In this document: positions 49,196 through 64,000 of the stretch, one piece after another
Layout: every line of letters starts with the position of its first letter
Numbering within the stretch: the stretch's first letter is position 1
Assembly (NCBI RefSeq): GCF_964194025.1
Contig: NW_027451934.1
Location: 1 to 64,000 of the forward strand
DNA from: Convolutriloba macropyga
Taxonomy: Eukaryota
Direction: 5' to 3'
DNA: 64,000 nucleotides
Notes under the pieces: model-generated
Database searches by the model: none
Seen by the model: the letters and a program-made list of their open reading frames with translations, nothing else
Told to the model about the DNA's origin: nothing
Position numbers and translations under genes: made by a program

Positions 49196-50121
49196 AATAA
49201 GTGACCCGGAAGGTCGAGAATAAAACTGTTCTGGTTATGCGAATGCACGCTTCACGTTGCAGCCAAAACGCAACCCGAGCTCCTCAAACGTACCCCAATC
49301 GCTCCGTGTCAGTATCCAGTATCAGTATCAGCAGTGTTATGCAACGTGTCTTTAGAAATCAGTATCAGTATCAGCAGCTAGTAACATGTCTTTAGAAATG
49401 CATGAATTTCGCACTCTTTTCTGACATGCTCAGACAATTTCATCACTTTCAAAATATCACTTAACTGTTTTTTACTATGAAATTACTCTAAACAGTCTGA
49501 AAAGTTGATCTGGTTTTTTTTCTGAGTATAATGATCTACTTTTTGAATGTAAATAAACTGCTTCAGTACTGGTTTTGCAATTTAATATGGAAATACGTAG
49601 GTTCCGTACTGAAACACTCTGGGTGGTAAGCTCGGGGTCCTTGTTACAAAAGGGCGTACCGATCCCCATATGACTTTCCACCGCAAAACAATAAACCTTC
49701 TTAAAGAATTATGAAAAGTCCATGGAGGCTCTCTTCAGTAGTGGTCAAAAGGTGCTAACCAGACCAAAAACTCATCCTAACGGATATTCGTTTTTGACTG
49801 GATAAATACACCTTTTCCCCACTACTACATATAATCTTTTGTTTTATTCACTATATTTATATTTCACTCTATGTTCACTTCTTATACAATTAAAAACTGT
49901 CATTTCTTGTCTCACTTAGTGCAAACCACTAGTACAGAGTTAAGCTGTTAATTAACCATTATCAGACGGATAGTTCGGGTTCTATCCTCACTGACTCCAG
50001 TGAACGTATCCCAGATACTAGTATAAAACTAGTGAGACCGTGTAACAAGCACGTAAAACCAACTTGCGAAAATTGATGTAACCACTTCGTGGATAATCTG
50101 CACAAAAAAACCGGCTTAACT

Positions 50122-50430
50122 CTAAACGTTTACATTAAACCTTTTGACATTTTCCTCAAATCTATCTTTGGTATGTGTTTGTCTATATCTATGAAGATAA
50201 ATACACAATCTACACTTAGCATTTCTAAATCTATAGTAAGAAATATGTTTATTAACCCTGCACATACAACATGTTAAATATAAACTCTTATCATTATAAT
50301 GTTTTCCTAAACGTTCAATATAATCTATTACTTTGACTACATTCTCACATACATAACAATGATACTCTATTTCTTTACAATTATCACAACACTCCCTCAA
50401 AGGCTTTTTTTTACACTTATGACACTTCAT
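50122..50430 (-). CDS. Small Cys-rich (zinc-finger-like) protein
   Basis: Five CxxC pairs in 102 aa. Confidence 0.6.
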   Translation of the reverse strand: MKCHKCKKKPLRECCDNCKEIEYHCYVCENVVKVIDYIERLGKHYNDKSLYLTCCMCRVNKHISYYRFRNAKCRLCIYLHRYRQTHTKDRFEENVKRFNVNV

Positions 50431-50618
50431 TTTTCACATTCGAAAAATTGTTTTTTCCAAATTTTTCCCTAATAAAATACGCCATGTCTCACCCAACTAA
50501 CAGTAAAAAAATTTCTGAGATGTCTGTAATTTATCCTTTGAAACAAAGAAGGGTTTATACAGGCATCAATCATACGATTCTAAACAAAAAGAACTGTTAA
50601 AGAAATTGTTTTGCTCTG

Positions 50619-61660: not shown

Positions 61661-62325
61661 GTAAAGCTACCTCGTAGATCATTATTGTTATTATTAGCAA
61701 AGCTACTTCGTAGATCATTATCATTATCATTATCTTTATCATCTGCGAAACAGGTTCCTTGATTAACATTATCATTATCAATATTAGCAAACCTACTTCT
61801 TAGATCAGTGTAACTGCTTCGCAGATAGGGCTTCGACCATGCTTTGCCATCTTTACTAAAACCAAAACAAAAACACTCATTATATATTCCAGGATATCTA
61901 CATTGATTAATTAGAATATTCAAAACATTGTTAATTCTAAATCCTCAATCAATAAGATACATCATACATAAACAATAAGCCCCATAATAAGATTCATCAT
62001 ACTGTTGTATTCTTTCGTTAGAGCCTAGATCAACACATTCTTCTAAAAATAAAGGTGGGGTCTCAACACCAAAACTATCAAAGTAATACACTGGACCACC
62101 TTCCCGTCTTATAACTAAAACCCAATGTGTACCATCAGTTGGATGTAGGTTGACAATAATGTTGACGTTAGGTTCTCTTGTGTTATCTAGAATTTGATCT
62201 CTCATTACAATTTCAATTGGTGTTAGACTTATATCTTTTCCTATATCTTTTATTCTGATATCACTCATAGCATTATTATCAATATTAAATTTATTATTGA
62301 TTTCCTCAAAAATTAGGATAAGCAT
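60748..62325 (-). pseudogene. Adenain-like protease fused through an N/D-rich linker to an A32-like ATPase; two in-frame stops
   Basis: Protease motifs GTHW, YFDSFG, IQ and YYGAYC (catalytic Cys now Tyr). The same frame continues past TGA 61945 into GPRECGKT, MIFDD, RGRH and VRENCN. Confidence 0.75.
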
Positions 62326-62687
62326 TTTTTATATAAAATTGTTAATTTTTAATTATGGGTCTGAGTCTAAGTCTAAGTCTAATTATGGTGTAGCATCGGT
62401 GAAGCCGTTTCACGGATGGTCGAAGACCCATAAGTCTAATTATAAGTCCAATTATAAGTCTAATTATAAGTTTAACTATAAGTCTAATTATAAGTTTAAT
62501 TATGGCTAAGCATGGTCGAAGACCCATAAGTTTAATTATAGATCAATATTTATCTATGTTTTCATATAATAAATTGGAGACAGGTAGCGTAGTTGTAATT
62601 TTTATTTTCTTAATTATAATTTGATATATAATATATGATTCAATACCAAGTAAATATACAAAACTAGAAGAAAACTTTGGTTGATTT

Positions 62688-64000
62688 ATGAATAAAAGTT
62701 TAGATACTTTTGAATATGAGAAGTCACCATTACATACTATTGTTTATATTGGAACTGGTACAGGCAAAACATATTTTATTAGACAATACTTAAAGTTATA
62801 CTTAGACCAAGATCAAAACCAAAACCGAAACCAAGACCAAAACCAAGACCAAAACCAAAACCAAAACCAAGACCAACACCAAAACCAAAACCAAGACCAA
62901 AACCAAGACCAAAACCAAAACCGAAACCAAAACCAAGCTAAAGATATAATCATAGTATGTAAAGATGATACAGATTGAATAGATCCTGAGACTGGTGAGT
63001 TTTACTTTGAGTTTAGTAAATGTGATATAAAAATGATAACATCAAAAAATAAGTCTAAATTAAAAGATAGTGTAATTGTTCTGGATGATATGGGTAATAA
63101 GTTAAATAAGGGTATAGCTTATTATTTCACAGAAGGAAGACATTATAATATTCAAATGATTGTAATGTGTCATGAACCAGTTCAAATAATTATTAGAGCA
63201 AGAATGAGTTGTGATACTATTTATTTAACAACTTATAATGGAGCTGATCTATTTAAAAATTCTAATGAAATATATAAATGTGAACATAACTTCAATAAAA
63301 AATTAGTGAATTAAATAGTAACTATTATAATTGTACAAACTGAATGTCAGATGAACTTCGTTATGGCATAATTAAATATAATAGGAAAGGGAATACTTTT
63401 AATATTATTGATAAGTATAGAACTATGATATGACTGGAGAGTTGGTTACGTTGACTTAAAAGCTCTTAGTTTAAAAGATAAATTAGAAATTGAAGACAAA
63501 AATAAACTTATACCATATATGAAACCCCTCATGATAAATGCTACAGATAGAAATACTATTAATCATGATAATTATCAGTTTGACTTTAATAAACTTCTTT
63601 CATCAAAAGGTATTAAAATACAGAACGATGTTTTAACAGAAGAAATGATTAGAGCAAATGGTTTTAGGTTATCATCAACTATTTTAGGCATTATAGGTAC
63701 ATGTTTTGTGATATATAATTATATGAGTCCTGATACAACAGTAAGAACTGCAGCACATGTAGCATCACATGCAAGCCATAAGTTAAATAGAGCAAGTACA
63801 TTATTGAACTATGCTTATGGGACTCCTTCCATGTTCCATAATGATGAGAATCAGGGAACCTGCTTCGCAGATCGGGATCATGGAACCTGCTTGGCAGATC
63901 GGGGTCAGGAGCATGAACAGGAAGAATATATAAATCTGAGAAGCTATTTCACAGACGAAGAGACTGGAATTTTAAATAAAGAAGGACAAAATAATTTAAA
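62688..64000 (+). pseudogene. Second A32/FtsK-like ATPase with a DQNQN repeat and a C-terminal extension; partial
   Basis: GTGTGKT, VIVLDD, EGRHYNIQMIVMCH and ARMSCD, broken by stops and frameshifts. Confidence 0.78.

Follow-up and report, generated by a model that had tools for sequence, protein, structure and literature searches.

We analysed a 64,000-nucleotide window of Convolutriloba macropyga DNA (contig NW_027451934.1, positions 1 to 64,000), which ends within a Polinton/Maverick of ~15.9 kb. We observed that this Polinton carries many copies of units of 21 or 24 bp, each able to form mini-hairpins. It is well supported that these units are a real family of very small mobile hairpins in one Polinton lineage.

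Units in the window

An initial annotation of this stretch had listed 18 AT-N19-AT motifs. We read the motif at all of the listed coordinates (18/18) and observed, as it had described, that the units occur in both orientations with fixed spacing and lie mostly within genes. A position weight matrix (PWM) was made from the 14 distinct variants of the listed sites and applied with a threshold of 10 bits. This gave 24 matches in positions 49,501-64,000, compared to a mean of 0.17 (maximum 1) in 30 Markov simulations, and no match in positions 1-49,500 of the window. Since the PWM was trained on the sites themselves, they were also scored leave-one-out, with results of 19-37 bits. Beyond the initial annotation, we found units at 50633 (composite), 50890, 50911, 54774 and 63934, the 24-bp class and the hairpin structure. 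The units are listed below; TIR stands for terminal inverted repeat, pPolB for the protein-primed DNA polymerase B, and sister loci are other copies of the element.

50072..50094, plus strand: 21-bp unit of the left TIR, repeated identically in the right TIR
50633..50679, plus strand: 45-bp composite, a 24-bp TT..TT unit within the TTC loop of a 21-bp unit
50717..50739, plus strand: 21-bp unit; three sister loci empty (two AT, one AA)
50869..50933, minus strand: three tandem 21-bp units (50869, 50890, 50911) with shared end dinucleotides
52991..53061, plus strand: 69-bp stack in the linker that precedes motif A of pPolB, one 24-mer inside another and then a 21-mer at 53039; whole stack missing from five sister loci, 53039 unit missing from nine (eight AT)
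54648..54670, plus strand: 21-bp AT..AT indel of a different hairpin type, start approximate; missing from seven sister loci
54753..54796, no single strand: two tandem 21-bp units in opposite orientations (54753 plus, 54774 minus); six sisters with a single AT at 54753
55401..55423, minus strand: 21-bp unit; 27 empty sisters (9 AT, 12 GT, 3 AC, 2 TT, 1 AA)
56422..56444, plus strand: 21-bp unit, commonest variant; 14 empty sisters (13 AT)
56530..56552, plus strand: 21-bp unit
57284..57309, no single strand: 24-bp AT..AT hairpin unit, polymorphic
60060..60085, plus strand: 24-bp unit
61480..61763, no single strand: five 21-bp units (61480, 61588, 61657, 61693, 61741) in an ATC/ATT microsatellite tract
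61783..61850, no single strand: stack of 21 + 21 + 24 bp with shared AT ends
62385..62431, plus strand: 45-bp composite, a 24-mer whose internal AT holds the 21-mer of 62395
62502..62527, plus strand: 24-bp AT..AT unit
63850..63899, plus strand: two 21-bp units (63850, 63877)
63934..63956, plus strand: degenerate 21-bp unit, polymorphic

Tandem slippage has probably multiplied some of the five units in the microsatellite tract. Low-complexity coding tracts (SQSQ, DNDN, QNQD-like) at 52940-52990, 61460-61790 and 62780-62930 expand in loops that accept units.

Filled and empty sites

The initial annotation had proposed a tiny mobile unit with a 2-bp duplication, and comparison of sister copies bears this out. 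By matching flanks, we found clean empty sites holding only the 2-bp end at 6 of the 18 listed positions (50717, 53039, 54753, 55401, 56422 and 62395), with single-AT sisters among them. When unit matches were mapped to one reference copy, 251 of 313 could be placed and fell into 51 site clusters, most of which are filled in a minority of the loci that cover them. An identical 23-mer (the 21-bp unit with both end dinucleotides) recurs in 20 of the 51. Among 115 aligned integrase homologues (of 120), 7-residue inserts are polymorphic at three positions.

Next to these patterns, we placed the pPolB-linker insert on a tree of 42 copies, for which only sequence outside that insert was used (row L131 is mislabelled). 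The linker is filled in 19 copies and empty in 23, a distribution that needs 9 changes, six of them forced by strong branches, compared to a mean of 14 for shuffled states. The units in the linker sit at differing ATs, and the same CAGG variant occurs in both deep clades. Clades that carry an identical 23-mer are ~0.3 substitutions per site apart. Taken together, we are highly confident that the units are mobile insertions.

We also considered that the units might be ancestral and that every empty site arose by deletion. The direct AT..AT repeats do favour slippage deletion, and some empty sites probably stem from precise loss through slippage between the two dinucleotides. However, at most sites the filled copies are a minority, and deletion alone fits poorly with an identical 23-mer in 20 unrelated clusters and in such distant clades.

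The 21-bp unit is built as two overlapping mini-hairpins

The 23-mer has the architecture AT-X-n-GNA-n'-X'-m-TNC-m'-X-AT. On one strand, positions 3-6 form a stem with 10-13, and on the other strand 11-14 do so with 18-21; both stems enclose a GNA loop. The result is two overlapping GNA-triloop mini-hairpins with 4-bp stems, one per strand, that jointly tile the 19-bp core. Covariation follows this fold: among 177 distinct variants, mutual information is highest at 6:10, 12:20 and 4:12, and Watson-Crick counts exceed the expectation under independence at six stem pairs (6:10, 132/177 compared to 59; 12:20, 140 compared to 79; 4:12, 128 compared to 77). With a pattern blind to pairing, 300 of 405 copies were fully paired, in contrast to none of 24 distinct chance matches in metagenomes. 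In this set, the X triplets CAG, TAG, CGG and TGG all recur. Among the 177 variants, the loops are mostly GNA. The core had been described as drifting; its letters do vary, but the base pairing is preserved.

Read from end to end, the commonest variant pairs at 8 of 11 positions, as a double-stranded palindromic binding site might, and a selected protein-binding site had been the second suggestion of the initial annotation. In the same 177 variants, however, the end-to-end pairs 3:21, 5:19 and 6:18 reach only the expected Watson-Crick counts. Because the stems covary and the end-to-end palindrome does not, a site for a dimeric protein is disfavoured, and some loci of the family are free of units. 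The palindrome and the deletion-only account are largely refuted by covariation, occupancy and the tree, and we give them next to no credence.

According to the available text of PMC13037366, GNA alone among the 64 triloops forms a stable, exonuclease-resistant DNA mini-hairpin, with a stability that standard prediction parameters miss. Since the loops belong to this DNA class, they point to single-stranded DNA (ssDNA) and not to RNA. Our folding gave ~-2.3 kcal/mol per hairpin, compared to -31.1 kcal/mol for the duplex.

A 24-bp class, nesting and further unit types

The 24-mer consists of two abutting hairpins on one strand. One 24-mer pattern has 1,349 copies in the genome, compared to 0 for its control; of the first 100 listed, 99 carry the same dinucleotide at both ends, as judged by eye. 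A PWM for the 24-mer returned shifted and GC-rich false matches; a set of 82 distinct variants was cleaner. It contains 33 AT..AT, 36 TT..TT, 2 GT..GT and 3 TT..AT units, and the end type follows the core subfamily. We rejected a strict D-D'-D dumbbell rule, which holds for the AT and one TT subfamily and fails for TT..AC..G-TT; two abutting hairpins therefore describe the 24-mer equally well.

Units also combine. Composites of 42, 45 and 69 bp are tandem, merged or nested units; 16 of the 36 TT-type 24-mers lie in the loop context of a 21-mer, and the window shows both nestings, a 24-mer in a 21-mer (50633-50679) and a 21-mer in a 24-mer (62385-62431). In an all-against-all comparison of 59 stretches, the lengths of hairpin-bearing indels peak at 21 (135), 24 (62) and 45 (35), counts that include shifted duplicates. 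Among indels of at least 10 nt, 348 of 393 hairpin-bearing ones are multiples of three, compared to 624 of 999 others.

Other polymorphic types were seen as well: 27- and 33-bp hairpin units, single-hairpin 12-bp AT..AT units and a few of 29 or 32 bp, which are not multiples of three (loci of further types: L073:328-360, L130:5753-5790, L105:8816-8850 and L132:7018-7052).

Copy number and confinement to one lineage

The genome (G000) contains 1,519 exact copies of the 23-mer at 53039 and 9,778 matches to a degenerate pattern for the 21-bp unit; reversed-pattern controls gave 0. We sampled 50 of the 1,519 exact matches. The first 30 loci, some of them overlapping, were all homologous to the focal element (30/30), as were 20 further loci picked mostly because they seemed isolated (20/20). 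All 50 sampled loci thus fall in this Polinton lineage, in agreement with a motif confined to the family. In a subfamily ~70% identical at the DNA level, 13 of 14 loci carry units, and none was found in 14 near-identical loci of the unrelated Polinton next to the focal one. GNA hairpins are likewise enriched in the focal element (25 compared to 1.05 expected, ~24-fold) and number 2 in the neighbouring Polinton, where 4.5 are expected. Host DNA at 3,000-19,400 holds 8 such hairpins compared to 2.9 expected (maximum 7), a mild and unexplained excess.

Outside this genome, the exact 23-mer had no match in viral contigs, and no integrase relative was found there. In metagenomes, 37 single matches to the degenerate pattern were rejected as chance, none of the 24 distinct ones being fully paired. 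A unit-type peptide was found in one of 150 pPolB representatives, a protein 59% identical to the query, and a weak match of 4 residues in one other. Four contig sets from a single study contain joints into and across units and added nothing independent. At G000:C1:259000-289000 (L101, L102), one set of units repeats every 2-4 kb over ~30 kb, which looks like tandem amplification of a Polinton segment.

Such density could mean that the hairpins are a useful cis signal, for priming free of single-strand-binding protein, as packaging marks or for shielding displaced ssDNA from exonuclease, with Polintons that gain more of them being favoured regardless of what inserts them. The three-way compensatory change of X, X' and X and the strict GNA loops are consistent with this, and mini-hairpins do function at phage G4 and RSF1010 origins and at N4 promoters, as described in the available text of PMC13037366. 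We nevertheless judge it improbable. Unit positions are patchy and in either orientation, and one sister copy (L073/L074) has 0-1 unit matches over ~13 kb. Structure would be equally conserved if it were needed for copying alone, as is argued for the yeast mitochondrial GC cluster GC42 in the accessible part of PMC4478555.

Movement through an RNA copy (retro-insertion), as proposed for GC42, was weighed in the same light. In the accessible text of Wu and Hao (PMC4478555), this route is suspected for GC clusters. For the present units it is very improbable: the GNA triloop is a DNA motif, a poly(A) tail is missing, the duplications are of 2 bp only, and no reverse transcriptase match was found in the element. 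A reverse transcriptase of the host should also insert genome-wide, yet 50 of 50 loci lie in the lineage.

Reading frame and timing of insertion

The units add 7 or 8 amino acids and keep the frame. With gene frames set by homology upstream of each unit, stop codons occur in 1 of 113 coding inserts, compared to 26.3 expected under random register, and all six registers are used. This stop avoidance indicates that the units are translated; micro-intron and excised-element readings were rejected on this ground and because GT..AG ends are lacking.

We also examined TIRs. Of 20 stretch pairs, 16 had an inverted match, and three of these had a unit inside, in both arms in every case (3/3). From stop avoidance and units in both arms, it is likely that the units enter elements that are still replicating and under selection, ahead of integration; this would also account for the apparent sparing of host DNA. 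One copy carries three tandem 21-mers within both TIR arms (L065:1127-1190 and L066); unit-length slippage is therefore a second route of increase.

How the units may be copied

Protein-primed strand-displacement replication exposes long single strands. We favour, at somewhat better than even confidence, the reading that the units are gene-less selfish DNA, spread when the polymerase of the Polinton itself switches templates on single-stranded intermediates of replication. GNA mini-hairpins would fold on the exposed ssDNA. A paused nascent end in ...AT (or ...TT) could then re-prime beside a folded unit on another template, and the polymerase would copy one unit and go back to the original dinucleotide. 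The hairpins may aid pausing, landing and release, so that any unit that keeps its pairing would be copied. Selection on Polinton proteins would retain only stop-free events of a multiple of three in tolerant loops. Template switching is supported by nesting at hairpins, the DNA-type loop, a hairpin for each strand and the lack of a transposase match. The ends also speak for it: every 24-bp subfamily has its own flanking dinucleotide, which a need for ends and target to match would predict.

Several points weigh against this reading. We infer its steps, and a 2-bp match is very little for re-priming. No longer microhomology was found: in 22 units starting AT-T, the next base is C in 18 and T in 1. 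The base that follows the 3' AT is C or G at 90 of 135 sites, compared to 32% in the background, a bias that could point to the target preference of an enzyme. The fold can matter only in ssDNA, because the duplex is far more stable than the hairpins, and the covariation could partly come from fold-back correction or from few founder variants instead of selection. As to the data, 12 of the 18 listed sites have no clean empty orthologue (five in the microsatellite, seven others), a single repeat-rich gene supplies 50 of the 113 coding sites, and the indel and site counts are partly non-independent.

The main rival is an enzyme that recognises ssDNA hairpins, cuts them and joins them, the units themselves being mobile. 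Such an enzyme could be the EndoVII-like domain that is fused to this pPolB, the integrase of the Polinton or a HUH protein unlinked to it, and the reaction might pass through a circle of 21 or 24 nt. This would account for the exact unit lengths and the one-sided AT-(C/G) target bias. An EndoVII domain is present in the focal pPolB and absent from the Pfam matches of the pPolB of the unit-free neighbour. Circularised 24-mers fold as dumbbells, 7 of 8 tested on the given strand reaching at most -0.1 kcal/mol, but circular 21-mers fold poorly, with positive energies. Furthermore, no HUH or transposase match was found among 15 sister open reading frames (ORFs), and distant pPolB relatives lack unit-type peptides (1/150 representatives, the 59% identical one, being the exception). 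DDE integrases make 5-6 bp duplications, not 2 bp, which also counts against this route. On balance, we regard the enzyme as unlikely, though it is the alternative that we take most seriously.

The units may even be gene-less parasites of a parasite near the minimum size of mobile DNA: 21- or 24-nt ssDNA folds copied between replicating Polintons, with shape as the sole heritable signal. One GNA hairpin per strand would let either strand donate, and the length would be tuned to 7 or 8 codons. The copier would be the protein-primed viral polymerase or the fused junction nuclease, and mitochondrial GC clusters and double-hairpin elements (DHEs) may be accounted for in the same way. We put this broader view forward tentatively, at a little under even confidence.

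The host Polinton and its surroundings

The element starts at 49737 and ends past the window, at contig position 65642 (G000:C2838:65642). Polintons carry TIRs with (AGT)2 ends and a 6-bp target-site duplication (TSD), according to the available text of PMC8097293. Here the TIR is 387 bp long with AGTAGT ends, and the flanks CTCTTC and TTCTTC agree at 5 of 6 bases, which we counted as the 6-bp TSD.

49737..64000, no single strand: host Polinton/Maverick, delimited by TIR match, AGTAGT end and flanks, double jelly-roll (DJR) capsid and EndoVII Pfam matches, and ORF list
49737..50123, plus strand: left TIR, inverted match to L061:1262-1642 at 93.8%

Its genes comprise pPolB with an EndoVII-like domain, RVE integrase, jelly-roll capsid and A32-like ATPase. 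In the window copy, Pfam matches were obtained for the DJR capsid and EndoVII, and the pPolB region is broken over several ORFs; the sister copy matched rve (E=1e-6, under the curated cutoff), DJR-like (E=2e-12) and Pox_A32 (E=9e-6). A DNA_pol_B_2 Pfam match was absent in the window and sister ORFs. The sister pPolB protein matches representatives of 1,100-1,300 aa at E<1e-80, some of them named DNA-directed DNA polymerase. Judged by sequence, the predicted protein-primed PolB, the RVE integrase, DJR capsid and packaging ATPase, and the TIRs and TSD are all those of a Polinton/Maverick.

A second, unrelated Polinton lies at 19410-41392, with 76-bp TIR arms, pPolB in two ORFs, rve integrase, an adenoviral-type protease and a TBP-like gene. 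It is young, since its ~16 genome copies are 98-99% identical over the marker. At 550-2872, ~85 tandem copies of a 27-bp unit are open on both strands (650- and 764-codon frames). At 15011-17568, a SET-domain ORF adjoins a DUF1258 ORF, both probably part of a DNA transposon.

Comparison with known systems

Short elements of several kinds share features with the units; we compared them as described in the available text of the papers cited. Yeast mitochondrial GC clusters (GC42; Wu and Hao 2015, PMC4478555; PMC4464245), whose mechanism is unsettled, are the nearest: GC-rich hairpins in AT-rich DNA with 2-3 bp flanking direct repeats (AG or ACT), single-copy empty sites, sporadic presence, constrained stems, tandem arrays or mergers and no gene of their own. 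They differ in being 30-80 bp long, mitochondrial and mostly intergenic. The units measure 21 or 24 bp, reside in a nuclear-integrated Polinton, mostly in frame within genes, and have GNA triloops and, in the 21-mer, overlapping hairpins.

DHEs of chytrid and fission-yeast mitochondrial DNA (PMC10085805) resemble the 24-bp class in their two abutting hairpins; they too occur as identical copies at unrelated sites and are termed potentially mobile. They are mitochondrial and mostly intergenic or in rRNA genes, whereas the 21-bp class has overlapping hairpins and clear frame selection. Of the features of GC clusters and DHEs, we thus found the GC-rich hairpin with conserved stem, the 2-3 bp direct repeat with empty sites, and tandem, merged and nested units, but neither the mitochondrial location nor the length of 30-80 bp. 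Small inverted repeats of sponge and placozoan mitochondrial DNA (PMC7813641) are likewise proliferating hairpins in animals that make indels in protein genes, in organelle genomes rather than in a virus-like element.

Repetitive extragenic palindromic (REP) and Rickettsia palindromic elements (PMC3733652) are short palindromes, some in frame in genes, and in-frame intragenic insertion is found here as well. The units differ in their shorter stems, eukaryotic viral host, and lack of a GTAG or CGTC tag and of a RAYT match. Unit ends are AT or TT in our variant tables, and the TAG variant has GTAG only as a stem arm; no RAYT (HUH) Pfam match was found in 15 sister or 12 window ORFs, to which the search was confined. 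The GNA mini-hairpins of phage G4, RSF1010 and N4 (PMC13037366) share the motif, a C/G-GNA-G/C triloop on a short stem, but are single fixed signals, whereas the units are thousands of dispersed polymorphic insertions. Miniature inverted-repeat transposable elements have terminal inverted repeats and 70-300 bp (PMC3733652). This class was rejected, as end-to-end pairs do not covary and the length is 21 or 24. Helitron-like elements insert between A and T without duplication and have a CTRR 3' end. The 21-mer is formally readable as inserted between A and T, but ends in YRGA, and 24-mers have TT..TT and GT..GT ends.

Because GC clusters and DHEs differ in location and size, and the REP tag, RAYT and the termini of miniature inverted-repeat elements are missing, we did not file the units under a known class. 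In a literature coverage that largely leaves out subscription journals, we found no report of such units in Polintons, and the main texts of the adintovirus paper PMC8502044 and the Maverick paper PMC8097293 contain the word 'hairpin' 0 times. The units, smaller than the described classes compared here, supply viral proteins with insertions of 7 and 8 residues. The movement of hairpin elements that lack genes, mitochondrial GC clusters and DHEs among them, has long been a puzzle. With ~10,000 copies, many filled and empty pairs and one candidate polymerase in one 16-kb replicon, the present system opens the rules of target choice and of structure, and the copying step itself, to testing. In conclusion, with an architecture that we did not find described, the units work like mitochondrial GC clusters and DHEs at a smaller size.

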